Source: Deltaproteobacteria bacterium
GTDB lineage: Bacteria > Desulfobacterota > DSM-4660 > Desulfatiglandales > Desulfatiglandaceae
Direction: 5' to 3'
Length of the DNA: 16,675 nucleotides
Assembly (NCBI GenBank): GCA_022340265.1
Contig: JAJDOH010000207.1
Coordinates: 1-16,675 of the forward strand
A program made the translations under genes and the position numbers. Below are positions 1-15,650 of the stretch, piece by piece. Position 1 is the first letter of the stretch. Each line of letters opens with the position of its first letter. The notes beneath the pieces were generated by a model, which made no database searches, had not been told where the DNA came from, and saw only the letters and a list, made by a program, of their open reading frames with translations.

Positions 1-736
1 TCCCCGGACGGAAATGTTCATCTTTGTCAAAAATGATGGGCGGCTTTCCTCTTTTCCGGGGGAGTTCCATGGGGACGATCTCATCCTTGAAATCCCCTTC
101 CTTGGTTGACCGTTCGGTATTGTTGTGGCTTCTGAGCGCCACTTCATCCATTGCTTCCCGGCTGATGTTGTGCATCTGGGCGATGATTTCCGCTGTGTGA
201 CCCATGATATACGGTTTCCCTTTGAAGAGCTCCAGGGGCATCCCTTCCTTAACCGGGCCTTCTTCCGGATGGGGCAGCAGATGAGAACCGCAGTGAAGGG
301 CGTGTATCATGGAGTCCACAAAGACGTGGTCCTGAAGCCTGCAGCCCCAGCGGGCGCCGGGAACGGTGTAGGGCGCTCCGGACATGTGTTCGGTACCACC
401 GGCCAGAATAACATCGGCCATGTCGGCCTGTATCATGGCCATTCCGGACAACACCGCCTCCATGCCCGAGATGCATACGCGGTTAATGGTGGCCGCGGTG
501 ACATGCTCCGGAATCCCGGCCATGAGTGCCGAAACACGTGACACGTTCAACGCGTCAGCCGGTTCCATGCAGCACCCGAACCGGACATCATCGATCAGTC
601 CGGGGTCAATTCCCGCCCGTTTGACCGCTTCTTTCATGCTGACGCTGCCGATAACGGCTGCATTGGAGTCTCTCAGTGTTCCGCCAAAGGCGCCGATGGC
701 CGTTCTGCACGCCGATACGATGACGACTTCTTTCAT
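1..736 (-). CDS. Thiolase (acetyl-CoA C-acyltransferase family), N-terminal ~245 aa; 3' end runs off the window start
   Basis: Absent from the ORF track because it is open at the window edge. Reverse complement from ATG (736-734) reads MKEVVIVSACRTAIGAFGGTLRDSNAAVIGSVSMKEAVKRAGIDPGLIDDV...ATINRVCISGMEAVLSGMAMIQ...ILAGGTEHMSGAPY, with no stop down to position 1. The N-terminus and the NRVCxSG nucleophile-Cys motif are thiolase hallmarks. GGAAAGGAG RBS is the rc of about 743-751. Confidence 0.9.
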   Translation of the reverse strand, partial: MKEVVIVSACRTAIGAFGGTLRDSNAAVIGSVSMKEAVKRAGIDPGLIDDVRFGCCMEPADALNVSRVSALMAGIPEHVTAATINRVCISGMEAVLSGMAMIQADMADVILAGGTEHMSGAPYTVPGARWGCRLQDHVFVDSMIHALHCGSHLLPHPEEGPVKEGMPLELFKGKPYIMGHTAEIIAQMHNISREAMDEVALRSHNNTERSTKEGDFKDEIVPMELPRKRGKPPIIFDKDEHFRPG

Positions 737-2121: not shown

Positions 2122-3171
2122 TCAGTCTTGTTTTCTTTCCCGGCTTTTCTGAAATCGCTTCACCGCCCAGTTGTGTTCCCGCAGGGTTTTAGAAAAATAA
2201 TGGGTGCCGTTATTTTTGGAAACAAAATAGTAATAGTTGCCTTCTGCCGGATTGAGCACCGCTTTTATGGCGGCCAGACCCGGATTTGCGATGGGGCCGG
2301 GTGGCAGCCCTTTGATGACGTACGTGTTGTAGGGCGTTTCGGTTCTGAGGTCCTTTTTGGTGATGTTTCCATTAAAATTGGTGACGCCGTAAATCACCGT
2401 GGGATCACTTTCAAGGCGCATGTTTCGATCGAGCCGGTTCAGGAACACGCGCGCAATCATGGGTCTTTCTTCAGGATTACCTGTCTCCTTTTCGACCATG
2501 GAGGCAAGGGTAATGACCTGCTCAAGTGCCAGGCCCGATTGACTGATCTGTTCTTCAAGGGGTGTGATGATATCCCGAAAACGTTTGACCAGGGTGGTGA
2601 TGATTTTGTCCGTTTTTTCTTTTCGCTGAAACCGGTATGTGTCCGGGTAAAGATACCCTTCAAGGGTGTTTCCGGAAAAGCCGAGGTGCGCTACCAGAGA
2701 TTTATCCCGCACCAGTGCCATGAAAGAATCCCTGCCCGCCAGCCCCTTCTGCGCCAGGAGTTCTGCAATCTGGTCCGAATTAAAGCCTTCGGGAATGGTG
2801 ACGGAAAGAGTTATGACCCGCCCTTTTTCAAGAATTTCAAGGATTTTCAATGGAGGCATGGCGCTGCTGAGACGGTATTCACCGGTTTTGATCATGTGGT
2901 CGTTTTCCATGAAGCGACCTGCCAGGCAAAAGAGGGTCTTGTTGCGAATAAGTCCCGAATTTTCAAGATCTGCTGCCACTTGATTCAGCGTGGCGCCTTC
3001 CTTTACCAGGAAATTCCGGCTTTCACCCTTTTTGTTTACGGGCCCCAGTCCGTACCGCACCCACAGGCTGGTGAAAAGAATAAAAAGGAGAAAGAGAAAA
3101 GCGGTCAGCAGCAGGATTGCCTTTGGCATTTCCCCAAAAAACCTGCATGATTTATCTGACTGTTCGTTCAT
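2122..3171 (-). CDS. mltG: Endolytic murein transglycosylase MltG (YceG-like)
   Basis: 349-aa ORF with an N-terminal TM helix (AILLLTAFLFLLFILFTSLWV). YceG motifs are present: LASMVEKE (catalytic Glu), VFLNRL, ESDPTVIYG, YNTYVIKGLPPGPIANPG, YYYFV. The start could also be the internal Met at MPKAILLL. Confidence 0.9.
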   Translation of the reverse strand: MNEQSDKSCRFFGEMPKAILLLTAFLFLLFILFTSLWVRYGLGPVNKKGESRNFLVKEGATLNQVAADLENSGLIRNKTLFCLAGRFMENDHMIKTGEYRLSSAMPPLKILEILEKGRVITLSVTIPEGFNSDQIAELLAQKGLAGRDSFMALVRDKSLVAHLGFSGNTLEGYLYPDTYRFQRKEKTDKIITTLVKRFRDIITPLEEQISQSGLALEQVITLASMVEKETGNPEERPMIARVFLNRLDRNMRLESDPTVIYGVTNFNGNITKKDLRTETPYNTYVIKGLPPGPIANPGLAAIKAVLNPAEGNYYYFVSKNNGTHYFSKTLREHNWAVKRFQKSRERKQD

Positions 3172-4130
3172 GATGCGGTCATTTCTTTCTGTTGCCCCCG
3201 AATTTTCGCCATCAGTGCGCCGATGCCCATGGCAGGCATGTCACCGCCGTTAAGATCCGACAGGTTTTCGAGAAATGCTCTGGCAGGGGGCGAAAGCTGC
3301 TGGTCTTTCAGATAAGCGATGCTCACATCCAAAAAAAGTGTCCGGTCATCAATGGATAAAGATGTCAAAAGCCCATTTTCCAACTCCATCAAAACCGCTG
3401 ATTCCACCAGGAAGGCGATGCCTTCGCCACGCTGGACCTCCATTTTGATGAATTCCGTGTTGCTGGTTTCCATGACGATGTTGGGGGTTATGTTGTTGCG
3501 GGCAAACATCCTGTCTACGAGGTGCCTGGTTCCGGAGCCCCCTTCCTTCATGATAATTCTTTCCCGGGCCAGCTCTTCAACGGATATGTCGGGTCTGGCG
3601 GCCAGAGGATGATCGGGGTGTGCGATGACGACGATTTCTTCACGGCTGAGGGGCAGAAATTGTACATCCGGGTGACTGACAATCTTGGCGATAATGACGA
3701 CTTCATTTTTAAAATCAACCAGGCTTTGAACCATGGATTGGGAACTCCCCTCATCCAGGCTGATGCGGATGTCTGAATAGGCCTGGTGAAAGCGGGTCAA
3801 CAAAAAAGGCATGAAATAGCGCGCGTAGGTTTTGGTGGTCCCCAGGCGCAAAACGCCCCGTTTTAATTCCTGCATTTCCTCAATAACAAACTCGATTTCC
3901 TTTTCGTAGTCGAACACATGTTTTGTGTATTCAAAAAGCGTCCTTCCCTCATCGGTCAAATGGACCCCACGGCCCTTTTTCCTGAAAAGTTTCATTTCGC
4001 AATGTTCTTCCAGCAATTTGATCTGGGCTGTTACCGCCGGCTGCGTAATGAAAAGATCCTTGGCCGCTGCTGTGAAATTAAGATTCTTGGCTGCATGATA
4101 AAATATGCGCAGTTGGTTGAAATTCAGCAT
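3168..4130 (-). CDS. LysR-family transcriptional regulator
   Basis: 320-aa ORF. The N-terminal wHTH MLNFNQLRIFYHAAKNLNFTAAAKDLFITQPAVTAQIKLLEEHCEMKLFRKKGRGVHLTDEGRTLF is classic LTTR, and the C-terminal part has substrate-binding-domain length. Its TGA stop overlaps the mltG ATG (ATGA at 3171-3168). Confidence 0.92.
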   Translation of the reverse strand: MLNFNQLRIFYHAAKNLNFTAAAKDLFITQPAVTAQIKLLEEHCEMKLFRKKGRGVHLTDEGRTLFEYTKHVFDYEKEIEFVIEEMQELKRGVLRLGTTKTYARYFMPFLLTRFHQAYSDIRISLDEGSSQSMVQSLVDFKNEVVIIAKIVSHPDVQFLPLSREEIVVIAHPDHPLAARPDISVEELARERIIMKEGGSGTRHLVDRMFARNNITPNIVMETSNTEFIKMEVQRGEGIAFLVESAVLMELENGLLTSLSIDDRTLFLDVSIAYLKDQQLSPPARAFLENLSDLNGGDMPAMGIGALMAKIRGQQKEMTAS

Positions 4131-4184
4131 GTTCAGAAATGGCCCGTTAGAAAGTGAAAATTGACTTTACCAAGGGATGATGAC

Positions 4185-4203
4185 TCATAAACAGAGCTTA
4201 TGA
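4185..4203. promoter_or_regulatory. Candidate LysR-type binding dyad (T-N11-A)
   Basis: TCATAA-acagagc-TTATGA is a perfect 6-bp inverted repeat with a 7-bp spacer. T4188 and A4200 satisfy T-N11-A. It lies 55-73 bp upstream of the lysR start in the divergent intergenic region. Confidence 0.45.
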
Positions 4204-4223
4204 ATACCATAAAAATTATCCAA

Positions 4224-4252
4224 TTGACACGTTTTTTTTTATGGGAGATTAT
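4224..4252 (+). promoter_or_regulatory. Possible sigma-70 promoter (TTGACA-N17-GATTAT)
   Basis: Perfect -35 TTGACA at 4224-4229 and a 4/6 -10 GATTAT at 4247-4252. It would give a leader of about 320 nt before the UbiD-like gene, so its functional relevance is uncertain. Confidence 0.3.
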
Positions 4253-4303
4253 GGAAACCAATATTTTTTTCGTCTCAGTGAACCCTGTCATAACCCCTTG
4301 CAA

Positions 4304-4349
4304 TTTTTGTTGTTATTTGGTGTTTTTGTTGGAATTTTGTTAGGATTTT
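4304..4349. promoter_or_regulatory. Helically phased T-tracts (predicted intrinsically curved DNA)
   Basis: T-runs at 4304-4308, 4316-4318, 4323-4327, 4335-4338 and 4346-4349. Tract centres are spaced about 10.4 bp apart on average. Further T7 and T9 runs lie at 4264-4270 and 4232-4240. Confidence 0.5.
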
Positions 4350-4463
4350 ACGATGATAGATCGATGCTGAGAGCACAACGGACAGGCGCTGAAGCAACTC
4401 CCATGCCGGCTTTTGAATGGGAATGTTCGCCTAGGTGAACGGGAGGCTCAAGCATTTTGATCA

Positions 4464-4479
4464 TGGGTTATTGTTTGCA
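4464..4479 (+). promoter_or_regulatory. Candidate sigma-54 (-24/-12) promoter
   Basis: TGGgttattgtTTGCA. GG at 4465-4466 and GC at 4477-4478 have the exact 12-nt offset of the TGGCAC-N5-TTGCW consensus. The box lies about 98 nt upstream of the UbiD-like ATG. Confidence 0.4.
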
Positions 4480-4576
4480 AACGCGCTTCACACACCCTTT
4501 AATCCGTGCCGTGAGGATCTTTCGGAACGGAGGGTAGGGCGCGTAAAATATCCATATTTTAAGGAGGTATTTTTAG

Positions 4577-5986
4577 ATGAAAAGCATGAGAGATTTTATT
4601 GAACTGGCGGAAAAGGAAGGTGAACTTAAAAGAATCACCGCGGAAGTGGATTGGAACCTTGAGTTGAGCCACATTGCCAAATTGAACGAAGAAGCACAGG
4701 GTCCTGCGCTCCTGTTTGAAAATGTCAAGGATTATGATACGCCGGTGATCACCAGCGCCTGTACCACCGCCCAGAAACTGGCCCTCATCATGGGGATGCC
4801 CAAGGATACCCCCCTTCCGGAGATCCTGCGCGGATGGGTGAAGATGGGCGAAAACCCCATTCCGGCCAAAATGGTGGACAAAAAAGATGCTCCCTGCAAA
4901 CAGAACATTATCATGGGCGATGATGTGGACCTCTACAAATTTCCCGTCCCCCATTTCTTCCCCCTGGACGGTGGCCGCTATATTGGAACAGCCCATTTTA
5001 TCGTCACCAAGGATCCTGAATCCGGCTGGGTGAACCTGGGCACCTACCGAAGCCAGTTGCTGGGCAAAAACAAGATCGGAACCCAGTTCATCAAAGGAAA
5101 GCATGCGGACCAGATGCTGAAGAAATACCAGAAGATGGGAAAATCCATGCCGTGCGCCTCCATCATCGGTTGTGATCCATTGCTCTTCATCCTGGGGGCA
5201 GCACGGGTTTCCGCGGAAATCAGTGAATATGACGTTTATGGCGCCATTCGCGGCGAGGCCTGTGAGGTGGTCATGGGTGAAACCGTTGATCTGCCCATTC
5301 CGGCCCACGCGGAAATCGTTCTGGAAGGGGAGTGCGATCCGGAAAAATTCATGGAAGAAGGCCCGTTTGGCGAGTACACGGGATACTATTCGGGTGTGGG
5401 TACCGATCCCAGAAACTACATGGATATCAAATGCGTCACCCATCGTGACAACCCCATCATGCACTCCACCACCGTGGGCCGGGCCGTCACCGACACCCAT
5501 ATGGTCATGGCCCTTTCATACGGCGCCACCCTCTGGCAGCAGTTGGCCGAGGAAATGCACATTCCGGGCATTAAGAGCGTTTACTGCCCCCCAGAGGGTT
5601 CCGGACGTTTTCTGGCCATCATTTCCGTGGAAACTCGATATCCCGGCCACGCTGATCAGGTATTGACCGCCGCCATATCAACGGAAATGGGCGCCTACGG
5701 TCTCAAAACCGTCATTGTGGTTGACGACGACATCGATGCATGGGATATCCCGAGGGTCATGTATGCGCTGAGCTTCCGCTTCCAACCCAACCGAAGTCAG
5801 GTCATCAAACGAGGCCGGTCTACACCACTCGATCCTTCATTGCCCATCGACGCCAGAGAGATCACCGGAAGGCTTCTGCTGGATGCGACCATCCCTTACG
5901 AATGGAAAAACAAACCGATTCCCATCACCCTCGATCCGGATATGGTCAAAAAGGTGAAAGGTCGCTGGTCCGAGTTGGGATTCTAG
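4577..5986 (+). CDS. UbiD-family prenylated-FMN-dependent (de)carboxylase
   Basis: 469-aa ORF with AAGGAGG RBS at 4560-4566. UbiD hallmarks are present: DGGRYIGT, TKDPESGWVNLGTYR (metal Asn plus catalytic Arg), KGKH, SEYDVYGAIRGE, VLEGE...EGPFGEYTGYY (acidic catalytic motif). Confidence 0.92.
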   Translation: MKSMRDFIELAEKEGELKRITAEVDWNLELSHIAKLNEEAQGPALLFENVKDYDTPVITSACTTAQKLALIMGMPKDTPLPEILRGWVKMGENPIPAKMVDKKDAPCKQNIIMGDDVDLYKFPVPHFFPLDGGRYIGTAHFIVTKDPESGWVNLGTYRSQLLGKNKIGTQFIKGKHADQMLKKYQKMGKSMPCASIIGCDPLLFILGAARVSAEISEYDVYGAIRGEACEVVMGETVDLPIPAHAEIVLEGECDPEKFMEEGPFGEYTGYYSGVGTDPRNYMDIKCVTHRDNPIMHSTTVGRAVTDTHMVMALSYGATLWQQLAEEMHIPGIKSVYCPPEGSGRFLAIISVETRYPGHADQVLTAAISTEMGAYGLKTVIVVDDDIDAWDIPRVMYALSFRFQPNRSQVIKRGRSTPLDPSLPIDAREITGRLLLDATIPYEWKNKPIPITLDPDMVKKVKGRWSELGF

Positions 5987-6012
5987 CGGCGATTCTTAAC
6001 AAATCCAAGCTC

Positions 6013-6040
6013 AGGCCCATCGTTTTTGAGCGGTGGGCCT
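6013..6040 (+). other. Intercistronic stem-loop between the UbiD-like gene and the ligase
   Basis: AGGCCCATCG-tttttgag-CGGTGGGCCT forms a 10-bp stem containing one G-U pair, with an 8-nt loop. No U-run follows. It lies in the 114-nt gap. Confidence 0.4.
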
Positions 6041-6100
6041 TGTTCCATCACCCAAAATAAGCTAACACCTGATACCTAAACGATACCTAGGAGGCGACCC

Positions 6101-7756
6101 ATGAAACCGATTCGATACAAAGAAAAAATGGTGCAGGAGTTCCTGGATGACGGGCACTGGACCGAAGAGCTCTTCTACGACTTTTACGACCGCAACGCAA
6201 CGGAAATGCCTGATCAGGAAGCCCTGGTGGATTCAAAATACCGCGTGACCTGGGCGCAGGCCAAGAAAATGGTGGATGCCATGGCCATATCCTGGGTTGA
6301 AATGGGCATTCCCAAATCAGCCCGTGTGATTATTCAGTCCCCCAACAGCGTTTACGGTTTTTTGGCCAGGGTCGCGTGCGAACGGGCCGGTCTCATCTCT
6401 CTTACGGTTTATCCCTATTTAAGACAACGGGAACTGGAGTATATGCTGGAAAAAACCGAGGCCACGGCCGTGGTGATCCCGGAAGTCTACCGCAAGTTCA
6501 ATTACCTGGATATGTACAAGGACCTTCAGAAACGGTTCACGCATCTGAAATACTTCTTCCTCTTTGATGATCAGGTTCCCCAAGGCGCACCCGATGGCAC
6601 CTATTCCATCGTCCAGATGGTGGAAGAGCGCATGAAAAAGCCCGTGGATGAATCGCTGCTGGAGGAAAGACGTTTGGACGCCAAATGGGATGTGGCGCTG
6701 CTCACCACCACCAGCGGTACTACGGGAATTCCCAAGCTTGTGGAATGGCCCACGGCGCCCAGGGTCTGCACCTCCAAAGGCCGCGTGGGGATCTGGAAGC
6801 TTAACAAAGATGATATCACCATGGCCATTGCGCCCCATGCGGGCGGGGCGGCCGGAACCCTCACTTATTTCGCTGCCCCCATCGCCGGTGCCAAAACAGT
6901 CATGCTGGAGGAATTTACCCCCGAAGGGGCCCTGGCCCTCATCGAAAAAGAGAAGGCCACGGCCATCGGTGTGGTTCCCACGCACCTGGTGCGAATGCTG
7001 GAAGCGGATGTTAAGAAATACGACCTCAGTTCTTTACGATTTATCCGGTCTGCGGGCGGTTATCTGTCCCCCCAGGTGGCGGAAGAGGCGGAAGATGCCT
7101 TTGGCGCTAGCATTACCAGTGACCTGGGTACGCAGGACAAGGGATCGGTTTCCGGTTGCAGCGTGGAAGATAGCAAGGAGCTTCGCAGACGAACCGTGGG
7201 CCGTATGCTGCCCGGCAACAAGGTGCGTCTGGTGGATGAAGAAGGAAACGTGGTGCCCGATGGCGAACCGGGCATTCTCTATTTCCGAGGTCCCCATGCG
7301 CCGGCGGGATATTATCGGGACGAAGAACTGACCGCTACGGTCTTTGATGAAGACGGATGGTGTACCACCGAGGATATTGTCAGTTTTGACCAGGGATGCC
7401 TCTGGATTCTGGGGCGTGCCAAGGATATGATCATTCGCGGTGGCCAGAACATCTATCCCGCGGAAGTAGAAGGGCTGCTCAATGAGCATCCGAAAGTTTC
7501 TTCCGTTGCCATCGTGGGGTACCCGGACCGGGCCATGGGCGAGAAATGTGCCGCTTACGTCATTCCCAAACCGGGCGAGACCTTTACCTTTGAAGAAATG
7601 GTGGAATTCCTGAAAGGAAAACAGCTGGCCATGTTCAAGTTGCCCGAGCGTTTGGAAATAGTGGATGAATTTCCGGCGGTGGGAGATTCCGGCAAGGTCA
7701 ACAAGGAAACGTTAAAGAAGATGATCAAGGAGAAAGTCGAGGCAGAGCAGGGCTGA
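6101..7756 (+). CDS. AMP-forming acyl-CoA ligase (ANL superfamily; aromatic/alicyclic acid-CoA ligase-like)
   Basis: 551-aa ORF with AGGAGG RBS. It carries the AMP-binding P-loop LLTTTSGTTGIPKLV, the hinge/A8 motif GRAKDMIIRGGQNIYPAEVE and the A10 Lys in SGKVNK. Confidence 0.9.
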   Translation: MKPIRYKEKMVQEFLDDGHWTEELFYDFYDRNATEMPDQEALVDSKYRVTWAQAKKMVDAMAISWVEMGIPKSARVIIQSPNSVYGFLARVACERAGLISLTVYPYLRQRELEYMLEKTEATAVVIPEVYRKFNYLDMYKDLQKRFTHLKYFFLFDDQVPQGAPDGTYSIVQMVEERMKKPVDESLLEERRLDAKWDVALLTTTSGTTGIPKLVEWPTAPRVCTSKGRVGIWKLNKDDITMAIAPHAGGAAGTLTYFAAPIAGAKTVMLEEFTPEGALALIEKEKATAIGVVPTHLVRMLEADVKKYDLSSLRFIRSAGGYLSPQVAEEAEDAFGASITSDLGTQDKGSVSGCSVEDSKELRRRTVGRMLPGNKVRLVDEEGNVVPDGEPGILYFRGPHAPAGYYRDEELTATVFDEDGWCTTEDIVSFDQGCLWILGRAKDMIIRGGQNIYPAEVEGLLNEHPKVSSVAIVGYPDRAMGEKCAAYVIPKPGETFTFEEMVEFLKGKQLAMFKLPERLEIVDEFPAVGDSGKVNKETLKKMIKEKVEAEQG

Positions 7757-8979
7757 TGGAAAACAAAACCCGAAAGTCCGTTCTGGTTATTTCCACCCTG
7801 GATACCAAAGGCGTTGAGACACTCTACCTGAGGGACAAAATTATGTCCCTCGGGATCAATCCTCTGCTGATGGATATCTCCATGCGAGGGAAAGGCGATT
7901 CCCCCGCTGAAATTACCCCGGTCCAGGTGGCGGAAGCCGGGGGAAGCAGTCTCGAAGAGATTCATGCCTCCAGGGAACGGTCAAAAATTACCAATATCAC
8001 CATCAAAGGGGCCTCCGAAATTGCCAAAGGCCTCCATGCCCAAGGAAAATTAGACGGGGTGATTGCCATGGGGGGATCCACCGGATCTCTGATGGCCACT
8101 GAAGTCATGCGGTCGCTCCCTTTCGGTCTGCCCAAACTCATGATTTCGTCCACGGCGGCCCTGCCGGGTCTATCCACACGCTACATCGGTACCGGTGATA
8201 TCATGCTCTTTCATTCCGTGATCGAAATATCCGGTGTTACGGACCTCTTGAAGAATGTCATGGACCGGGCTGCCGGCGCTCTTGCGGGAATGGTTCAGGG
8301 GGACGTCGTCGCCGCCAAATCCAAAGCGGCCAAATCGGTTGCCATAACCATGTTGGGTCCCTGCGAGCAATGCGCCAGTTCCGTCAGAAAGGTTCTGGCG
8401 GGGGCGGGTTATCAGGTTACCGGGTTTTCAGCTGCGGGTATCAGTGATCGTGCCATGGAAGAAATGATTGCAAACGGCCTGTTCCAGGGGGTGGTGGATT
8501 TGGCACCGGGCGGTGTGGGAGAGCATCTGTTTGGTTTCATGCGGGACGCAGGTCCCCATCGCATGGAAACCGCGGGAAATGCCGGTCTGCCGCAGGTGAT
8601 TTCCACCTGCAGCGTGAACCACATGACGCCCTCCAAACGCAAATACAAGCCTGAATACCATGAAAGACGGAAATACGACCTGGACAAGCTGAGAACCTGG
8701 ATCCGGCTTTCGCCTGAAGAGCTGAAAGAAGTAGCGGTGGCATTTGCGGAAAAACTGAACCGTGCCAAAGGACCCGTTTGCGTGATGCTGCCGCTGAAAG
8801 GTTGGTCGTCGGTGGATTATCCGGGGAATGCCACGTTTGATCCGGAAGAAGACCAATTGTTTAATGAGGTGCTTCGCGAAAAGTTGAACCCGCATATTGA
8901 CATCATTGAAGTGGATGCCAATATGGAGGATCCGGCGTTTGCGGAAGCGGTGGCACAGGCTGCGTTGAAGATTTTCTGA
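7756..8979 (+). CDS. Tm-1-like / UPF0261 family ATP-binding protein (function unknown)
   Basis: 407-aa ORF. The N-terminus VLVISTLDTKGVETLYLRDKI and the overall length match the UPF0261 (tomato Tm-1 N-terminal domain) family as I recall it. Its start overlaps the ligase stop (TGATG, 7754-7758). Confidence 0.75.
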   Translation: MENKTRKSVLVISTLDTKGVETLYLRDKIMSLGINPLLMDISMRGKGDSPAEITPVQVAEAGGSSLEEIHASRERSKITNITIKGASEIAKGLHAQGKLDGVIAMGGSTGSLMATEVMRSLPFGLPKLMISSTAALPGLSTRYIGTGDIMLFHSVIEISGVTDLLKNVMDRAAGALAGMVQGDVVAAKSKAAKSVAITMLGPCEQCASSVRKVLAGAGYQVTGFSAAGISDRAMEEMIANGLFQGVVDLAPGGVGEHLFGFMRDAGPHRMETAGNAGLPQVISTCSVNHMTPSKRKYKPEYHERRKYDLDKLRTWIRLSPEELKEVAVAFAEKLNRAKGPVCVMLPLKGWSSVDYPGNATFDPEEDQLFNEVLREKLNPHIDIIEVDANMEDPAFAEAVAQAALKIF

Positions 8980-8992
8980 AAAGGGGTTCACC

Positions 8993-9553
8993 ATGAAAAA
9001 AAGATTGGTTGTGGGCATATCGGGTGCCAGTGGCGTCATATACGGCGTTAGAATGCTGGGGCTGCTCAAGGAAACCGATTTTGAGACCCATCTCATTATC
9101 TCCGATTCAGGCAGGCGGAACATTGAAATTGAAACCGATTTCAAGCCGGTTGATGTGGAGGCCATGGCCGACCATGTCTATGAAGACCGGGATGTTGGGG
9201 CGGCGCTTGCCAGCGGATCTTTTCTGACCTGCGGAATGGTTGTGGCGCCCTGCACCATCAAGACCCTTTCCGGCATTGCCAATTCCTACACCAGTAACCT
9301 TCTGGTTCGGGCGGCGGATGTCAACCTGAAAGAGGGCCGGAAACTGGTCCTGATGGTGAGAGAAACCCCTTTGCACAAAGGGCATCTTCGATTGATGACC
9401 ATGGCGGCGGATATGGGTGCCCATATTTTGCCGCCGGTGCCCTCATTTTATCATCAACCCAAAACCCTTCAGGATATTATCGATCAAAGCATCGGAAAGG
9501 TGTTTGATTATCTGGGCGTTGAGCATCAACTGTTCAGGCGTTGGGAGGGGTAA
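8993..9553 (+). CDS. ubiX: UbiX/Pad1 flavin prenyltransferase (prFMN synthase)
   Basis: 186-aa ORF. MKKRLVVGISGASGVIYGVRML...THLIISD...VVAPCTIKTLSGIANSYTSNLLVRAADVNLKEGRKLVLMVRETPLHKGHLRLM...PPVPSFY is near-canonical UbiX. It starts 13 nt after the preceding stop. Confidence 0.95.
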   Translation: MKKRLVVGISGASGVIYGVRMLGLLKETDFETHLIISDSGRRNIEIETDFKPVDVEAMADHVYEDRDVGAALASGSFLTCGMVVAPCTIKTLSGIANSYTSNLLVRAADVNLKEGRKLVLMVRETPLHKGHLRLMTMAADMGAHILPPVPSFYHQPKTLQDIIDQSIGKVFDYLGVEHQLFRRWEG

Positions 9554-10319
9554 AGAGCGGCCGGTTATTGATTTGTTGCGCGATCTTTCCGGCTGCTTCC
9601 CGGATTTCTGCTTCTAATATTCCCATCATGTGATCATCGAGTGCCGATTTAAAGCCCACTGCCCAGATGGCATAGAGTTTACCCTGTTTTCCACGAATGG
9701 GAGCCGCTGCGGCGCGGACACCGTCAATATATTCCTCGTCGTCGGAGGCATAACCATTTTCTTTTGCGCGGCTTACCGCAATGAGGTAAGCATCCGGATC
9801 GGTAATGGTTCGGGCGGTGAATCTGGGAATTCCTTTCTCAACAATCATGCTGTTCGCTTGCTCGGGGTCCATGGAAGCGAGAAAAATCTTGCCGATGGCC
9901 CCGGCCAGAAGGGGGATGGTACTTCCCCTGGGTGCCGTTATTTTAAGATTATGGTTCGATTCCACAACGTCCAGAATGCTGACCCGCCGGCCGTTGGGGA
10001 TGCCGAAGAAAACGGACGCGCCGGTTTGTTCCATCAATTTTTCCATGATGGGTCTGGCAATTTCCCGAAGGTCAAGCTCCGAATAGGCGGTTTTCCCGAG
10101 TTCAAAGAGGGTGGGACCTAAAAAATATCTTTTGGAAGAAGGATCTCGAATCAGGGCCCCTTCTTCGACCATGGCACTGATAATGCCATGAGCGGTGCCC
10201 TTGCTCATTTCCAGCTGATTGGCCAGATGGCTGAGGTTCAACCCTTTTGGGCTCCTGGCAATCTGTCGAAGTATTGAAAAGGCTTTTCTGACGGATGGGG
10301 CTTGGTATTTTCCGGACAT
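9534..10319 (-). CDS. IclR-family transcriptional regulator
   Basis: 261-aa ORF with an N-terminal wHTH (VRKAFSILRQIARSPKGLNLSHLANQLEMSKGTAHGIISAMVEEGAL) and a C-terminal IclR effector domain of typical length. GAGGTG RBS is the rc of about 10325-10330. Its 3' end overlaps the ubiX 3' end by 20 nt. Confidence 0.9.
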   Translation of the reverse strand: MSGKYQAPSVRKAFSILRQIARSPKGLNLSHLANQLEMSKGTAHGIISAMVEEGALIRDPSSKRYFLGPTLFELGKTAYSELDLREIARPIMEKLMEQTGASVFFGIPNGRRVSILDVVESNHNLKITAPRGSTIPLLAGAIGKIFLASMDPEQANSMIVEKGIPRFTARTITDPDAYLIAVSRAKENGYASDDEEYIDGVRAAAAPIRGKQGKLYAIWAVGFKSALDDHMMGILEAEIREAAGKIAQQINNRPLFTPPNA

Positions 10320-10380
10320 TCGTTCACCTCGCTGAACATTTATCCGAAGCCTACGCTTCTATTCAAATTTTGTCAACCTG

Positions 10381-10406
10381 TATATCTATCTATAAATAGA
10401 GATATA
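10381..10406. promoter_or_regulatory. AT-rich imperfect palindrome (candidate regulator site / iclR promoter region)
   Basis: TATATCTatCTAT-aaa-TAGAGATATA. The core is a perfect palindrome TCTAT-aa-ATAGA at 10389-10400, and the arms extend with a 2-nt bulge. It lies 26-50 bp upstream of the -35 of the hydroxylase promoter. Confidence 0.35.
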
Positions 10407-10431
10407 AATATTTAATCAGATCTGTTTTTGC

Positions 10432-10459
10432 TTGACACCACGTATTTTCCTGCTATGAT
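10432..10459 (+). promoter_or_regulatory. Strong sigma-70 promoter with extended -10
   Basis: TTGACA (10432-10437), a 16-nt spacer, then TGcTATGAT (TGn at 10451-10453, -10 at 10454-10459). It is oriented toward the Mo-hydroxylase operon. Confidence 0.65.
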
Positions 10460-10471
10460 TTTCTGGAAGGT

Positions 10472-10491
10472 ATGTTCAGTATGATGAACAT
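10472..10491. promoter_or_regulatory. Palindromic operator candidate just downstream of the -10
   Basis: ATGTTCA-gtatga-TGAACAT has perfect 7-bp arms. Relative to the predicted start site it sits at about +7 to +26, a typical repressor roadblock location. Confidence 0.5.
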
Positions 10492-10603
10492 CTCAACGAA
10501 TGCTTAAGGTTCGGTAAGTTTAAGGGGTGTGTCGCTTTTAGATTTATCAATTTCACGACAAAAGGGGCGGTTTTTAGCGGTCCCGAAAAATCAGGAGGGT
10601 AAA

Positions 10604-11482
10604 ATGCTTTTACCGAAATTTGAATTCCATGAGCCCGAAACGGTCGAAGAGGCCTGCCGGATACTTGGGGAACTGGGCGAAAAGGCCAAAACCCTTGCGG
10701 GCGGGACGGATCTACTGGTCAACATGAAGAAGAAACTGCTTGCGCCCGAGCATGTGGTGTCACTGGATAGGATCGCATCACTTGCGGAAATAGATGTCTC
10801 CAACGGGACACTCAAGATAGGTGCCTGCGCCAAGGCGGCCGATATTGCAGAATCGAAGGCCGTTATCAAAGAGTTTCCCGCATTGCAGACGGGCGCGTCC
10901 AAATTGGGCTCGCCATTGATTCGAAATCTTGCAACGATTGGGGGAAACCTGGTTTCAGCACGGCCCGCTGCGGACTTTCCACCGCCACTGATGGCCTATG
11001 GGGCAAGTGTTGTTCTGAGAAGCGGCACCGGCCAGCGGACTGTCGCACTGTCGGATTTTATAGAAGGGCCCGGTCAAACCGTTCTTTTGCCCGAAGAGAT
11101 TCTTGAAGCCGTTCTGCTGGAAAAGCCTGAAGCCTATTCCGGAAGTGCATATTATAAACTGGGGATTCGGGAGGCGCTGGAGATTTCACTGGTTAATATT
11201 GCCGTCTCTATTACGACCGATGGTCCCGGAGGCGCCATTAAAGCTGGAAGCGTCGTAATGGGATCCGTGGGTCCCACGCCGCTCTTGTCACCATCCGCTG
11301 AAAAAGTGCTGGTTGGAGAAAAACCGTCTGAAGCCCTTTTTCTTGCGGCTGGAGAAGCGGCTGCCATGGATAGCAAACCCATTGATGATTTCAGGGCAAG
11401 CGCTGGGTACAAAAGGGCCATGGTCAAGGAGTTGACCAAAAGAGCACTGCTTCAGGCATATGAGCGTGTGTGCAGTGAATAA
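10604..11482 (+). CDS. Mo-hydroxylase medium subunit, FAD-binding (CoxM/XdhB-like)
   Basis: I prefer the ATG at 10604, preceded by AGGAGG at 10593-10598, over the track's GTG at 10529. This gives a 292-aa protein. It carries the FAD-binding PCMH motifs LAGGTDLLVNMK and ATIGGNL, plus a C-terminal CO-dehydrogenase flavoprotein domain (RASAGYKRAM). Confidence 0.9.
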   Translation: MLLPKFEFHEPETVEEACRILGELGEKAKTLAGGTDLLVNMKKKLLAPEHVVSLDRIASLAEIDVSNGTLKIGACAKAADIAESKAVIKEFPALQTGASKLGSPLIRNLATIGGNLVSARPAADFPPPLMAYGASVVLRSGTGQRTVALSDFIEGPGQTVLLPEEILEAVLLEKPEAYSGSAYYKLGIREALEISLVNIAVSITTDGPGGAIKAGSVVMGSVGPTPLLSPSAEKVLVGEKPSEALFLAAGEAAAMDSKPIDDFRASAGYKRAMVKELTKRALLQAYERVCSE

Positions 11483-11562
11483 ATGGGTCGCCATGGAAAG
11501 AAATTCCGGTAGGACACAACTCAAAAACGGCGATCGGGAATATAAATTAAGAGGAGAGAACG

Positions 11563-12027
11563 ATGAAAGAGATGATCTGCCTCACCATAAACGGCAAAGA
11601 ATATGAATTGGCTGTGGCACCCAATATGACCCTGGCGGACCTTTTAAGGGAAGAGCTTTTATTGACGGGCACGAAAAAGGGGTGTGAACTGGGGGATTGT
11701 GGAACGTGTACCGTTATCATGAATGGCAAAGCGGTCAATTCCTGTCTGGTTCTGGCCGTTCAGGCCTCGGGCAAAGAAATAACCACTGTTGAGGGTCTTG
11801 AAACCGATGAAGGCCTGCATCCCTTGCAGGAAAAATTCATTGAAAACGGCGCCATTCAGTGCGGGTTTTGTACTTCCGGAATGTTGCTCAGTGCAAAAAG
11901 TCTTCTGGACAAGAACCCGAAACCCGATGAAACGGAAATTCGTACCGCCATATCCGGCAATCTGTGCAGATGTACCGGCTATCAGAAGATTGTTGAGTCC
12001 ATCAAAGATGCCAGTGAAGGGAGATAG
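11563..12027 (+). CDS. Mo-hydroxylase small subunit, two [2Fe-2S] clusters (CoxS/XdhC-iron-sulfur-like)
   Basis: 154-aa ORF with GAGGAG RBS. It has the plant-type motif CELGDCGTCTV...NSC and the second-cluster motif QCGFCTSGM...CRCTGY. Confidence 0.95.
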   Translation: MKEMICLTINGKEYELAVAPNMTLADLLREELLLTGTKKGCELGDCGTCTVIMNGKAVNSCLVLAVQASGKEITTVEGLETDEGLHPLQEKFIENGAIQCGFCTSGMLLSAKSLLDKNPKPDETEIRTAISGNLCRCTGYQKIVESIKDASEGR

Positions 12028-12030
12028 GAA

Positions 12031-14391
12031 ATGACCGAATATCATGTGATCAATGGACGGGCCCCGCGACTGGATGCTCCTGCCAAAGCAACCGGTAGGG
12101 CCATATATGTGGATGACATCAAACTTCCGGGCATGCTTTACGGCGCATTGCTGCAGAGTCCCCTGGCCCATGCCAAGATTCTCAATATTGATACCGCCAA
12201 GGCACGGAAACTTCCCGGCGTCAAATCGGTGGTCACCGCGGAAGAGGCGGGAATGGTTCATTATGGGGTGAGTCCCGCTCGATATGATGAAACCCTTTTT
12301 GTCAAAGATCGGGTACGCTATATCGGCGATGAAATTGCCGCTGTGGCCGCAGTGGATTTGGAAACAGCCCTCGAAGCCGTTTCCCTGATTGATGTGGAAT
12401 ACGAGGAACTGCCGGCGATCTTTACCATGGAAGAAGCCATGGCTGAAGGGGCGCCGCAGATTCATGAAAAATATCCCCGTAACATCGGTGCGGAAGTTCA
12501 CCAGGAATTCGGAAACGTGGAAGAGGCCTTCGCCCAGTGCGATCTAATTCGAACCGATACGTTTTTAAACAAAAGGCAGGACGGCGCGTTTCTGGAACCG
12601 AACGGAGTTGTGGCCGATTACGACCGTAACGGATTTTTGACACTTCATTCTTCCACCCAGGTGCCCCACTATGTCATGCGGATTATTGCCATGGTGCTGG
12701 GGATTCCCATCGGAAAGGTGAGAGTGAAAAAGCCTTATGTGGGAGGTGGTTTCGGCCCCAAGGCGGGTACCAATTCCATGGAACTGGCCTCATGTCTTCT
12801 TTCCATCAAGACCGGCAAGCCGGTCAAAATGAATTTTACGCGGGAGCAGGTTTTTCTCTTTTCGAGGGGCAGACATCAATTTAAACACACCCTGACGACG
12901 GGTGTCAAGAAAGACGGAACGCTGATGGCGTTGGCCAACGAGTGCTATCTGGAGGGGGGCGCATACACCAGTTTCGGGATTGCCACCGTCTATTATGCGG
13001 GATCACTTCTGGGTGCACCTTACAGACTGCCCAACATGAAATATGATGGTTTCCGGCTGTACACCAACCGGCCCGCCTGCGGCGCGCAGCGGGGGCACGG
13101 TGGCGTAGCGGCCCGGGCTGCCTGGGAACAGCAGATTGATTTTATTGCCGAAGAATTGGGCATGGATCCGGTGGATTTTCGGCTCAAAAACTCCATGGAA
13201 GCAGGCGACATCACCTGCAACGATTTCAATACCAGCAGTTTCGGCATGAAGGAATGCATTGAAGCCGTCAGAGACGGTTCCAAATGGAGTGAGAAAAAGG
13301 GAAAAATGTCTGAAGGCAAGGGGATCGGTATTGCCACGGGATTTTTCGTCTCCGGTGCAGGGTATCCCATTTACCGTTCTGAAACAGCCCACTCCACGGT
13401 GGTCATCAAATTGAGCGAGGACGGGGGAACGGCCCATGTGCTCACGGGAAGTGCTGAAATCGGTCAGGGTTCAGATACCGCCATGGCCATGATTGCCGCC
13501 GAAGCCCTGGGCGTGCCGCTGGACAGCATCAGGATATCATCAGGGGATACCGATTACAGCGTTGACCTCGGTGCCTATTCCAGCCGCCAGACCCTCATGA
13601 CCGGTCATGCCACCAAGGCTGCCGCCGAGGATCTGAAGGAGCAGGTCCTGGCGGTTTTGAGCGAAAAGCTGGATGTGCCGGTGGAACGGATGGACATCAA
13701 AAACGGCTTTATCGTGTTCAAGGGTGAACCGCCTGACTTTGGCGGCCTCAGAGCCACCTATGCCAAAGAGCATCGGGGTTTTTCAGACAACCCGGGTCTG
13801 GATGAGCCGCTCACCTTCAGAGAGGCGGCGCGAATCGCCTATTTGACCCTGGGATCCATGGTGGGCACCGGCAGTTACAAGCCGGGTGAACTGGGCGGTA
13901 AATTCAAGGGGGCTGCCGTCGGCACGTCTCCGGCGTACGGTCCATCCGCTCAGGTGGTGGAAATAACCGTTGACAAAGGGACGGGCAAGATTACCATTGA
14001 CCGCATGACCGATGCCCACGACTGCGGTTTTGCCATCAACCGAACGTCGGTGGAAGCGCAGATGCAGGGGTCTCTCTCCATGGGTGTCGGCGAGGCCATG
14101 TATGAGGAAGTGAAGTTTGATGATAAGGGGAAGATTTTGAACGCCAATTTGGGCGAGTACAAAATTGCGACAGCGCTCGATATGCCCAATGTGGATGCCA
14201 TCATCGTTGAAAGCAACGAACCCAATGGTCCATTCGGTGCCAAGGAGGTGGGTGAAGGGGCGATCATGCCCACCATTCCCGCCATACTGAATGCCCTCTA
14301 CGATGCTACCGGCGTCAGGATTCAGGAATTGCCTCTAACGCCTGAGCGGGTGTTCAAAGCCATTCGGGAAAAGGAAGACAAGGAGAAATAG
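12031..14391 (+). CDS. Mo-hydroxylase large subunit, molybdopterin-binding (xanthine dehydrogenase/aldehyde oxidase family)
   Basis: 786-aa ORF starting 3 nt after the small-subunit stop. Family motifs are present: ATGRAIYVDDIKLPGML...SPLAHAKI, RYIGDEIAAVAA, GGGFGPK, and the C-terminal catalytic-Glu loop PFGAKEVGEGAI. Confidence 0.93.
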   Translation: MTEYHVINGRAPRLDAPAKATGRAIYVDDIKLPGMLYGALLQSPLAHAKILNIDTAKARKLPGVKSVVTAEEAGMVHYGVSPARYDETLFVKDRVRYIGDEIAAVAAVDLETALEAVSLIDVEYEELPAIFTMEEAMAEGAPQIHEKYPRNIGAEVHQEFGNVEEAFAQCDLIRTDTFLNKRQDGAFLEPNGVVADYDRNGFLTLHSSTQVPHYVMRIIAMVLGIPIGKVRVKKPYVGGGFGPKAGTNSMELASCLLSIKTGKPVKMNFTREQVFLFSRGRHQFKHTLTTGVKKDGTLMALANECYLEGGAYTSFGIATVYYAGSLLGAPYRLPNMKYDGFRLYTNRPACGAQRGHGGVAARAAWEQQIDFIAEELGMDPVDFRLKNSMEAGDITCNDFNTSSFGMKECIEAVRDGSKWSEKKGKMSEGKGIGIATGFFVSGAGYPIYRSETAHSTVVIKLSEDGGTAHVLTGSAEIGQGSDTAMAMIAAEALGVPLDSIRISSGDTDYSVDLGAYSSRQTLMTGHATKAAAEDLKEQVLAVLSEKLDVPVERMDIKNGFIVFKGEPPDFGGLRATYAKEHRGFSDNPGLDEPLTFREAARIAYLTLGSMVGTGSYKPGELGGKFKGAAVGTSPAYGPSAQVVEITVDKGTGKITIDRMTDAHDCGFAINRTSVEAQMQGSLSMGVGEAMYEEVKFDDKGKILNANLGEYKIATALDMPNVDAIIVESNEPNGPFGAKEVGEGAIMPTIPAILNALYDATGVRIQELPLTPERVFKAIREKEDKEK

Positions 14392-14417: not shown

Positions 14418-14574
14418 CAATGCTATTAACTTAACCCCGAAATGAATTCAGCGTTACTACCGGGCGTCATTCCGGCGAAGGCCGGAATCCAGTAATTTCA
14501 AACGGTTCTGGACCCCGGCTTTCGCCGGGGTGACGTAATTGCTAAATGAGATGGTTCCTAAGTTAATGGCATTG
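14418..14574. mobile_element. 157-bp non-coding MITE-like insertion with terminal inverted repeats and a 10-bp target-site duplication
   Basis: The left end CAATGCTATTAACTTAA (14418-14434) matches the reverse complement of the right end CTAAGTTAATGGCATTG (14558-14574) at 15/17 positions. The element is immediately flanked by the identical direct repeat GGGTGCAGGG (14408-14417 and 14575-14584). It has no coding capacity for a transposase. Confidence 0.7.
14464..14536. repeat. Inverted pair of 29-nt self-complementary units inside the MITE (REP-like double hairpin)
   Basis: Unit A (14464-14492) is GCGTCATTCCGGCgaagGCCGGAATCCAG. Unit B (14508-14536) as reverse complement is ACGTCACCCCGGCgaaaGCCGGGGTCCAG, identical at 23/29 positions. 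Each unit folds into an 8-bp hairpin (14469-14488 and 14512-14531). Confidence 0.8.
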
Positions 14575-14614
14575 GGGTGCAGGGGGCAGAATAAAACCTG
14601 CAACCGGATTTTCC
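14575..14614 (+). terminator. Weak candidate intrinsic terminator of the hydroxylase operon (uses the right copy of the duplicated target)
   Basis: GGGTGCAGG (14575-14583) pairs with CCTGCAACC (14597-14605) with one mismatch. The loop is 13 nt and is followed by GGATTTTCC. The large loop and short T-run make this weak. Confidence 0.3.
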
Positions 14615-14664
14615 GCACCCTGACACCTATCCAGCCAACGACAGCCAATAGAACAGGTCCAAAA

Positions 14665-15414
14665 ATGACGCCATCATTGTCGCCTGAAGAAGCCCTCAGG
14701 TACCACCGACAGATGATCCTGCCCCAGATCGGTGATGAAGGTCAGAAGATCCTTCAACGTTCGCGGGTCTTTCTGGCCGGCCTGGGGGGACTGGGATCCA
14801 TTTCCGCTTATTATCTGGCAGCGGCAGGGATCGGGCAGCTGCGGGCAGTGGACAGGGATCGGGTGGATTTGGGAAACCTCAACCGGCAGTTGCTCCATTT
14901 TACTGAAGACATCGGAAAAGAGAAGACCGAATCCGCGAAAACAAAACTTGAAAACCTCAACCCCCACTGCCGGGTTGAGGCCGTCTGTGAGACGATCCAT
15001 GGCCACAACGGAGATACGCTGGTAGGTGATGCACATCTCATAGTGGATGGTACCGACAATTTGAAAACACGAAAGATTCTCAATCGGGTTTCGATCAAAA
15101 AAGGCATTCCCTTTATTTTTGGTGGCGTGGACGGTCTGACGGGTATGACCACGACCTTTATTCCTGGCAAAACACCTTGTTTTGAATGCCTTTTTCCGGA
15201 AGGAACCCTCGATAAGGGGCCTCCGGGTGTGTTGGGTCCTCTGCCGGGAATGATCGGTGCGCTCCAAGCGCTTTCGGCCATTAACTTTCTGCTGGGTATA
15301 AAAAGTGGTTTACTCGCCGGTCGAATGCTATATATCGATGGTGCGACCATGAATTTCAGGACGATCCAGATGGGAAAAAACGACCGATGCCGTGTGTGCG
15401 GAGCCGATTACTGA
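14665..15414 (+). CDS. ThiF/MoeB/HesA-family E1-like adenylyltransferase
   Basis: I prefer the ATG at 14665, giving 249 aa. The track's start at 14539 would read through the MITE. The sequence shows LSPEEALRYHRQMILPQIGDEGQKILQRSRVFLAGLGGLGS (nucleotide-binding GxGxxG) and two CxxC Zn motifs (CFEC, CRVC). There is no rhodanese domain. Confidence 0.9.
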   Translation: MTPSLSPEEALRYHRQMILPQIGDEGQKILQRSRVFLAGLGGLGSISAYYLAAAGIGQLRAVDRDRVDLGNLNRQLLHFTEDIGKEKTESAKTKLENLNPHCRVEAVCETIHGHNGDTLVGDAHLIVDGTDNLKTRKILNRVSIKKGIPFIFGGVDGLTGMTTTFIPGKTPCFECLFPEGTLDKGPPGVLGPLPGMIGALQALSAINFLLGIKSGLLAGRMLYIDGATMNFRTIQMGKNDRCRVCGADY

Positions 15415-15428
15415 AAGGAGGTTTTCTC

Positions 15429-15650
15429 ATGAATAATGACGCTGAAACGATCGAAATAACCATTAATGGTTTTAAGGAAAAAGCGACAAAGGGATCCTCC
15501 ATTACGGAATTGATTCTGAAATATGATGAAATGGAGTCTGCCATGATGGTGGAAAGAAACGGAAAGTTCGTTTATCCCCAGGATTATGATGGGACCTTCC
15601 CTGACGCCGGGGATGTCCTTGAATTCATCCATCCGGATTTTGGTGGTTAA
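15429..15650 (+). CDS. ThiS/MoaD-like ubiquitin-fold sulfur-carrier protein ending in Gly-Gly
   Basis: I prefer the ATG at 15429 with AGGAGG at 15416-15421. The 73-aa product is MNNDAETIEITINGFKEK...GDVLEFIHPDFGG. The beta-grasp-like pattern and C-terminal GG immediately before the stop fit the family, and it sits directly downstream of the E1-like gene. Confidence 0.8.
   Translation: MNNDAETIEITINGFKEKATKGSSITELILKYDEMESAMMVERNGKFVYPQDYDGTFPDAGDVLEFIHPDFGG

Follow-up and report, generated by a model that had tools for sequence, protein, structure and literature searches.

A probable upper pathway for anaerobic phenol or 4-hydroxybenzoate degradation in an uncultured member of the Desulfatiglandales

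Introduction

The chemistry expected of anaerobic phenol catabolism is that of Thauera aromatica, in which phenol is converted to 4-hydroxybenzoate, then to the coenzyme A (CoA) ester, and finally to benzoyl-CoA. This organism uses PpsABC and a phenylphosphate carboxylase, PpcABCD, that combines two UbiD-like subunits (alpha and beta) with a small gamma subunit and a phosphatase (delta), and the 4Fe-4S loop in the flavin adenine dinucleotide (FAD) subunit (HcrB) of its molybdenum (Mo) enzyme, 4-hydroxybenzoyl-CoA reductase (HcrABC), is considered important for reverse electron flow. Here, we analyze a 16,675-nucleotide (nt) stretch of DNA from an uncultured bacterium of the Desulfatiglandaceae (contig JAJDOH010000207.1 of assembly GCA_022340265.1; hereafter, the window), in which two neighboring operons encode a UbiD-type (de)carboxylase, an AMP-forming ligase, a UPF0261/Tm-1-like ATP-binding protein and the flavin prenyltransferase UbiX, and a three-subunit Mo enzyme, respectively.

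The closest described system is the phe cluster of Desulfatiglans anilini, whose proteins are much more abundant in cells grown on phenol than in those grown on benzoate (PMC6114531, Xie and Muller, 2018). Extracts of D. anilini convert phenol to phenylphosphate, and the energy cost of the route was flagged by these authors as unexplained (PMC6114531). The same organism has a parallel ani cluster that is induced by aniline and 4-aminobenzoate and in which a ligase and an HcrA-like enzyme are encoded alongside a paralogue of PpcB; in vitro, phenylphosphoamidate was carboxylated by the refolded phe-cluster UbiD (H567DRAFT_02059) in combination with a paralogue (PMC7500099, Xie et al., 2020). The UPF0261 gene of the phe cluster (02057) is discussed in neither paper (PMC6114531, PMC7500099). 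The sole known activity in the UPF0261 family is that of MarK, the multiple aromatic kinase of Novosphingobium aromaticivorans, described in 2025 as a kinase that phosphorylates phenolic hydroxyls while converting ATP to ADP; two of its residues, His219 and His304, contact phenol and show over 90% conservation in homologues of MarK (PMC12624787).

Results

Colinearity with the phe cluster of D. anilini

The seven genes that begin with UbiD and end with the Mo subunit are colinear with H567DRAFT_02059-02053 of D. anilini, with identities of 80% for UbiD (02059), 79% for the ligase (02058), 72% for the UPF0261 protein (02057), 77% for UbiX (02056), 57% for the FAD subunit (02055), 75% for the 2Fe-2S subunit (02054) and 77% for the Mo subunit (02053). 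Judged by locus tags and annotations, this D. anilini locus is the published phe cluster, H567DRAFT_02049-02059 (PMC6114531, PMC7500099), and it consists of a divergent LysR gene, the UbiD, ligase, UPF0261, UbiX, FAD, FeS and Mo genes in that order, and two phenylphosphate-synthase-like genes. The window thus has in common with it the seven genes and their order, the divergent LysR gene, the UPF0261 gene, an FAD subunit without the 4Fe-4S loop, and the lack of an XdhC gene. It differs in that an IclR gene is inserted between the UbiX and FAD genes, in that the Mo subunit is followed by MoeB/MoaD-like genes where D. anilini has ppsA/ppsB, and in that neither phenylphosphate synthase (pps) genes nor an 02049-type ligase are present. 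We consider it probable that the window holds the upper phenol/4-hydroxybenzoate pathway of sulfate-reducing Desulfobacterota, as an orthologue of the phe cluster, and the most likely outcome of this pathway is the conversion of phenol or 4-hydroxybenzoate to benzoyl-CoA without oxygen.

An earlier note on this DNA, made from the sequence alone, had proposed an oxygen-independent catabolic cluster for an aromatic compound, a view that our analysis supports, and anaerobic phenol/4-hydroxybenzoate catabolism, one of its three listed analogies, fits as well. Its description of the pathway as uncharacterized, and as different from all three described clusters, does not stand, given the colinearity with a published cluster: neither the Tm-1-like gene, nor the loop-less FAD subunit, nor the missing XdhC gene is distinguishing, because the phe cluster has the same traits.

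The D. anilini orthologues respond to phenol. Fold values were taken from a supplementary proteome table with four abundance columns (PMC7500099, Xie et al., 2020), the fourth of which we took to represent phenol because it is the sole column in which UbiX (02056) appears, and the text reports UbiX only on phenol. In this column, 02059 was 12-20-fold more abundant, the ligase 02058 about 15-fold, the UPF0261 protein 02057 about 50-fold and the Mo subunit 02053 4-6-fold, and UbiX was detected only in phenol-grown cells (PMC7500099). The same enzyme logic might still be applied to another para-substituted substrate (aniline/4-aminobenzoate, catechol/protocatechuate or hydroquinone/gentisate), with the Mo enzyme removing an amino group or another hydroxyl from the CoA ester: the ani cluster offers a parallel in its PpcB paralogue, ligase and HcrA-like enzyme, 02059 itself is needed for the carboxylation of phenylphosphoamidate in vitro, and there are no pps genes in the window to tie the cluster to phenol. 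However, the window UbiD shares 80% of its residues with 02059, which is itself only 52% identical to the ani paralogue (PMC7500099), the colinearity with the phe cluster extends to all seven genes, and their orthologues peak on phenol and not on aniline, such that we regard a different substrate as improbable.

Affinities of the carboxylase, the ligase and the Mo enzyme

Families were assigned by scores against curated hidden Markov models and PDB sequences. The UbiD protein passes TIGR02724, the NCBI equivalog model of phenylphosphate carboxylase's beta subunit, PpcB (522 bits; cutoff, 469), and it falls far below the cutoffs of the VdcC and PpcA models and of the model for UbiD of quinone biosynthesis (257 bits; cutoff, 788), showing that it is not a quinone-biosynthetic enzyme. 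Its best match among solved structures is PhdA, an enzyme dependent on prenylated FMN (prFMN), at 285 bits, followed by E. coli UbiD (236 bits), HmfF (218 bits), VdcC (210 bits) and AroY (133 bits), with the phthaloyl-CoA decarboxylase structures 8OZ5 and 8PMK at only 49 bits. Residues N153, R158, E217, E261 and E266, which make up the Mn/prFMN-binding and Glu-Arg-Glu motifs (with a presumed correspondence to Fdc1 numbering), align with those of PhdA and E. coli UbiD, and the prFMN, metal and catalytic motif residues are invariant across 13 orthologues. UbiX passes its own model, NF004685 (258 bits; cutoff, 188). To judge by these motifs and scores, the protein annotated as "phenylphosphate carboxylase beta" is in all likelihood a prFMN enzyme accompanied by its own UbiX.

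The ligase is nearest to enzymes that adenylate hydroxy-aryl acids, its best structural matches being 2,3-dihydroxybenzoate- and salicylate-AMP ligases (about 230 bits), and then 4-chlorobenzoate-CoA ligase (157 bits); it is predicted to be a 4-hydroxybenzoate-CoA ligase. The Mo subunit aligns end-to-end with HcrA of Thauera aromatica (1RM6_A; 579 bits, 42% identity), the next-best structure being quinoline oxidoreductase at 295 bits (HmfA was not among the structures compared), and it scores higher with the HcrA model TIGR03194 (882 bits) than with XdhA (604 bits), which separates it from the purine/xanthine dehydrogenases. Because its match to HcrA is about twice that to any hydroxylase, the enzyme is probably a reductive dehydroxylase, and not the Mo hydroxylase that the earlier note had named.

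That note had looked to the Hmf cluster of Cupriavidus basilensis and to phthalate degradation, and had proposed an uncharacterized route by which a furan, phthalate or N-heterocyclic carboxylate would be hydroxylated by the Mo enzyme with oxygen from water. At the level of broad families the resemblance to the Hmf and phthaloyl-CoA decarboxylase systems is genuine, in that UbiD, UbiX, an acyl-CoA ligase, a three-subunit Mo enzyme and a LysR regulator recur, and the loop-less FAD subunit resembles those of ordinary hydroxylases. However, the UbiD protein is closest to neither HmfF nor phthaloyl-CoA decarboxylase, scoring higher with PhdA and passing the model for PpcB; the Mo subunit resembles HcrA; HmfE has no counterpart in the window; and the orthologous cluster is induced by phenol. 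Both analogies were rejected on the UbiD scores and the HcrA-like Mo subunit, and we think it highly unlikely that the cluster encodes a hydroxylating pathway of this kind.

Synteny across related loci

Scanning a single genome for each species gave at least 556 genomes with relatives of the window UbiD, and we tabulated 81 loci, almost all of which are labelled Desulfobacterota (Desulfatiglandales, Desulfobacterales, Desulfomonilaceae and Syntrophaceae); counts of syntenic genes take in only those loci with enough flanking sequence. The closest genome among the matches listed is a Desulfatiglandales metagenome-assembled genome whose UbiD is 99% identical. UbiD is followed by the ligase gene in 53 of 58 loci, UPF0261 is encoded downstream of UbiD in every one of 45, and 25 of 28 have UbiX. 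Immediately upstream, 45 of 53 loci encode PpsA, and the eight that lack an upstream pps gene are D. anilini, in which the pps genes come after the Mo enzyme, and seven loci of the window's own clade. All eight carry the Mo enzyme directly downstream, and an HcrA-type enzyme occurs within 10 kb in 11 of 37 loci overall.

In a widespread version of the cluster (loci L083-L085, 14297-19017), an HD-domain phosphohydrolase, whose start overlaps the UPF0261 stop, and a CBS-domain protein are encoded between UPF0261 and UbiX, with an 87-aa protein, an aldehyde:ferredoxin oxidoreductase and a ferredoxin encoded next; the window has none of these genes.

The two operons might be accidental neighbors that serve unrelated pathways: their regulators and promoters are separate, the Mo enzyme lies within 10 kb in less than a third of the loci and is sometimes inverted, and identity to the close relative L088 is mosaic, with UbiD at 98% and IclR at 62%. 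We assign this very little weight, since the operons are contiguous in D. anilini, with no IclR gene between them, and are co-induced there by phenol, since an HcrA-like enzyme would be expected to act on the aroyl-CoA that the ligase forms, and since the Mo enzyme is directly downstream in all eight loci without upstream pps. The claim of the earlier note that the two operons belong together is therefore upheld.

Two further relatives, L088 and L089, have UbiD proteins 98% identical to that of the window. The neighboring genes of L089 are the same as those of the window. In L088, however, the region 3-7 kb upstream contains a second UPF0261 paralogue, of the type that retains the MarK histidine (His-type), together with a PpsA-like gene (at 5.6 kb), and these two take the place of the YceG, CoA-transferase and thiolase genes, and there is no UbiX gene between its UPF0261 and IclR genes (L088 1-12102). 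Identity to the window falls along L088 from 98% (UbiD) and 96% (ligase) to 85% (UPF0261) and 62% (IclR), a pattern from which the cluster appears to have been reshuffled by recombination. Given this mosaic and the PpsA-like gene within it, the absence of pps from the window says little about the organism, and a pps-free lineage, which we had considered, is not established.

Departures from the described enzymes

Several features depart from the described enzymes or weigh against the assignment to phenol. Domain scans of the window detected no second UbiD-family gene, no small-subunit gene and no HAD-phosphatase gene, and hence no homologue of PpcA, PpcC or PpcD: compared with the four-subunit enzyme of Thauera aromatica, the window has a single UbiD-type subunit, without alpha, gamma or delta, and a co-encoded UbiX. 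It also differs from Thauera in having an added UPF0261 gene. The score of the Mo subunit with TIGR03194, although the highest obtained, is below the equivalog cutoff of that model (995 bits), and the subunit has an insertion of about 23 residues (residues ~566-588) relative to Thauera HcrA. As the earlier note had observed, the FAD subunit has no 4Fe-4S insertion: it aligns colinearly with CutM, the flavoprotein of CO dehydrogenase, it lacks the 38-residue, four-cysteine insertion (the 4Fe-4S loop) found in a paralogue from a related locus, and HcrB aligns with it over residues 2-118 only. Without this loop, electron entry must differ from that in Thauera aromatica.

The remaining difficulties concern the first steps. 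No gene with a PEP-utilizers or PPDK_N domain, and thus no phenylphosphate synthase, is present in the window, and neither pps nor PpcA/C/D genes occur in the flanks of seven sister loci (L003-L008 and L015; 4.7-10 kb upstream and 8.8-10 kb downstream), such that the formation of phenylphosphate rests on unseen genes. In D. anilini, moreover, phenylphosphate carboxylase activity was not demonstrable in cell extracts, and the role of 4-hydroxybenzoate ligase was assigned to 02049, with the orthologue of the window ligase, 02058, labelled "function unknown" (PMC6114531).

The UPF0261 protein

The UPF0261 protein matches MarK (PDB 9MPY) at 198 bits and retains its ATP motif, D16-T17-K18 and G201 corresponding to MarK D14-T15-K16 and Gly195; the two proteins also have in common a two-domain fold family and an aromatic catabolic context. 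However, both of the phenol-contacting histidines are missing, MarK His219 being replaced by Ser225 and His304 by Leu309, and the remaining pocket residues differ as well. These replacements are characteristic of the group of ligase-adjacent orthologues (serine at the His219 position in 50 of 53, leucine at the His304 position in 49 of 53). Two further groups of UPF0261 paralogues from the same clusters retain His219 in all 36 sequences, and among 130 full-length representatives of the family, histidine is present at the His219 position in 112 (86%) and at the His304 position in 94 (72%). Fusions of the ligase with UPF0261 were found neither in the best 150 of 3440 family representatives nor in the 120 closest homologues.

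The notion that the protein is a plain MarK-type phenol kinase is weakened by the replacement of both histidines throughout its orthologue group, and by the retention of His219 in paralogues from the same clusters. Its sequence and position suggest instead a conserved ATP-binding partner of the ligase/UbiD pair, induced by phenol in the case of the D. anilini orthologue, whose substrate pocket has been altered, and our best guess is that it acts as an ATP-dependent helper of the carboxylase/ligase step. It is conceivable, if doubtful, that the His-less protein is a missing catalytic component of phenol carboxylation in strict anaerobes, an ATP-dependent partner that would let a single prFMN-dependent UbiD replace the four-subunit enzyme or, in lineages such as that of the window, would make the activation of phenol cheaper in ATP.

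Another reading dispenses with the synthase altogether: in the window's lineage, prFMN-UbiD would carboxylate free phenol directly, either pulled by the ligase or primed by UPF0261 as an ADP-forming kinase, thereby halving the ATP cost. The absence of pps from the window and from seven sister loci agrees with such a route, as do a UbiD with all prFMN motifs and a co-encoded UbiX, an ever-present UPF0261 gene whose product has retained the ATP motif, the demonstration by MarK that this family can phosphorylate phenols with conversion of ATP to ADP, and the energy cost that the D. anilini authors flagged as unexplained. However, L088 has a PpsA-like gene and a His-type UPF0261 paralogue upstream, pps and UPF0261 share one cluster in 45 of 53 loci, and the window protein has neither His219 nor His304 of the MarK phenol-binding site, and we consider a synthase-free route unlikely.

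UPF0261 paralogues also occur beside a different reductase. At L086/L087 (99-5511), as well as at L010 and L011, there is a second HcrA-like Mo enzyme, with a 331-aa FAD subunit bearing the four-cysteine loop, and a His-type UPF0261 paralogue lies directly after it, upstream of the phenol cluster's LysR gene. Because this loop-bearing reductase also adjoins a UPF0261 gene, UPF0261 genes are linked to both kinds of reductase.

Regulators and putative regulatory sites

In most related loci with a sufficiently long upstream flank, a LysR gene takes the same divergent position at the start of the cluster, with identities of 30-61%, rising to 82-84% in the window's clade. The spacer between LysR and UbiD contains a promoter-like site (TTGACA-17-GATTAT; 10 of 12 matches, by consensus match only), and that between IclR and the FAD gene contains the best such site of the window (TTGACA-16-TATGAT with an upstream TG; 11 of 12 matches), although across the whole window promoter-like sites are not enriched (15 found and 13.4 expected). 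Just downstream of this best site is a perfect palindrome, ATGTTCA-N6-TGAACAT, a second copy of which, with two mismatches, abuts the IclR start codon. Against an expectation of 0.09, these two copies make the pair a candidate IclR operator; no other locus yielded the zero-mismatch form.

The IclR protein weakly matches the PcaR/PcaU/PobR subfamily (113 bits, below the cutoff). Its gene is divergent from the FAD-FeS-Mo genes in nine loci (L003, L005, L007, L015, L043, L049, L058, L088 and L089) and absent in L004, L006, L008 and D. anilini. The block comprising IclR and the oppositely oriented FAD-FeS-Mo-MoeB-MoaD genes recurs among loci, sometimes inverted (L043, L049 and L058), and the reductase operon therefore looks like a module with its own regulation that often docks beside the carboxylation operon.

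Gene inventory and flanking genes

Genes were identified by listing open reading frames (ORFs) and scanning the window proteins against Pfam and NCBIfam (Table 1). All those named in the earlier note lie where it had placed them, and the junctions it described are exact: the ligase stop and the UPF0261 start overlap in TGATG (7754-7758), and 13 nt separate UPF0261 from UbiX (8980-8992). The IclR gene is convergent with UbiX, overlapping it by 20 nt, and divergent from the FAD gene, the ATG of which is preceded by an AGGAGG ribosome-binding site. The ORF and domain scans found no XdhC, HmfE-type or transporter gene in the window, again in agreement with the note; a Rfam scan of the window returned no RNA family, and a scan for terminators did not exceed chance (18 found and 21.8 expected).

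Table 1. Features of the 16,675-nt window.
Feature	Position	Strand	Remarks
Thiolase	1-736	-	N-terminal fragment only
Family III CoA-transferase	792-1982	-	
YceG/MltG cell-wall transglycosylase	2122-3171	-	Between LysR and CoA-transferase; 4-nt overlap with LysR stop
LysR-family regulator	3168-4130	-	HTH_1 and LysR_substrate domains; divergent from UbiD
LysR/UbiD intergenic region, 446 nt	4131-4576		Promoter-like site 4224-4252 (+)
PpcB-type UbiD (de)carboxylase, 469 aa	4577-5986	+	UbiD_N, UbiD and UbiD_C domains
AMP-forming aryl-acid ligase, 551 aa	6101-7756	+	AMP-binding and AMP-binding_C domains
UPF0261/Tm-1-like ATP-binding protein, 407 aa	7756-8979	+	UPF0261 and UPF0261_C domains
UbiX flavin prenyltransferase, 186 aa	8993-9553	+	NF004685
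IclR-family regulator	9534-10319	-	HTH_IclR and IclR_C domains
IclR/FAD intergenic region	10320-10603		Promoter-like site 10432-10459; palindromes 10472-10491 (perfect) and 10320-10339
FAD subunit of Mo enzyme, 292 aa	10604-11482	+	FAD_binding_5 and CO_deh_flav_C domains
2x[2Fe-2S] small subunit, 154 aa	11563-12027	+	Fer2 and Fer2_2 domains
Mo-pterin large subunit, 786 aa	12031-14391	+	HcrA-like
MoeB/ThiF-like adenylyltransferase	14539-15414	+	ThiF domain; ORF from TTG, likely start ATG 14659
MoaD/ThiS-like sulfur carrier	15387-15650	+	ThiS domain; likely start 15429 (73 aa)
Response regulator, partial	15878-window end	+	HD-type (HD_5/HD) output domain

The earlier note had ended the second operon at 14391, which is indeed the end of the Mo subunit gene, but the operon probably continues into the MoeB/MoaD-like genes. 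The MoeB/ThiF-like protein scores 236-250 bits with MoeB models, just under their cutoffs, and is called as 249 aa in L089; the MoaD/ThiS-like protein, called as 73 aa in both L088 and L089, terminates in Gly-Gly. Such a pair comes after the Mo subunit in at least 12 related loci (L003-L008, L015, L043, L049, L058, L088 and L089), some of them inverted, and may constitute a dedicated pair for molybdopterin synthesis in place of XdhC. Downstream of the MoaD gene, a response regulator with an HD-type domain is encoded in L088 and L089, as it is in the window.

On the other side of the cluster, the CoA-transferase and thiolase that the note had placed beyond LysR are present, but the thiolase is a fragment and the intervening YceG/MltG gene had gone unmentioned. 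The LysR-YceG-CoA-transferase/thiolase arrangement is kept only in the window's clade, and for this reason neither the CoA-transferase nor the thiolase is likely to belong to the pathway.

Discussion

From gene content, orthology and synteny we infer the substrates of the pathway, the direction of the Mo enzyme, the dependence on prFMN and the roles of the regulators as follows. Phenol would diffuse into the cell and would probably be phosphorylated to phenylphosphate by a PpsAB-type synthase encoded outside the window. The PpcB-type UbiD, loaded with prFMN supplied by UbiX, would then carboxylate the para position to yield 4-hydroxybenzoate, as its orthology, its intact prFMN/Mn motifs and its linkage to UbiX suggest. 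The ligase is expected to convert 4-hydroxybenzoate to 4-hydroxybenzoyl-CoA at the expense of ATP, which is cleaved to AMP, and in so doing to pull the unfavorable carboxylation forward, and the HcrA-like three-subunit Mo enzyme, by homology, would remove the hydroxyl reductively to give benzoyl-CoA, with the MoeB/MoaD-like proteins probably supplying molybdopterin. The UPF0261 protein would participate as a conserved ATP-binding component, its gene being translationally coupled to that of the ligase. The LysR regulator may control the operon for carboxylation and ligation, and IclR the reductase operon from its own promoter.

The cluster is of an already described type, now encountered in uncultured Desulfatiglandales, and its variations from that of D. 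anilini are minor. It extends the published gene set for phenol degradation to these uncultured bacteria and should be useful for annotating genomes from anoxic sediments and contaminated aquifers. The comparison leaves two leads, the first being the electron supply of the loop-less reductase: it raises the question of which electron donor serves a Mo enzyme that is induced by phenol but has no 4Fe-4S loop, a feature regarded as necessary for reductive dehydroxylation. The second is the ATP-binding UPF0261 protein, whose conservation in these clusters equals that of the carboxylase itself and whose role in the anaerobic activation of phenol is now directly testable. If this protein were indeed a missing component of phenol carboxylation, or lowered the ATP cost of activation, that would address how sulfate and iron reducers that possess only ppcB carboxylate phenol, and how they pay for it.

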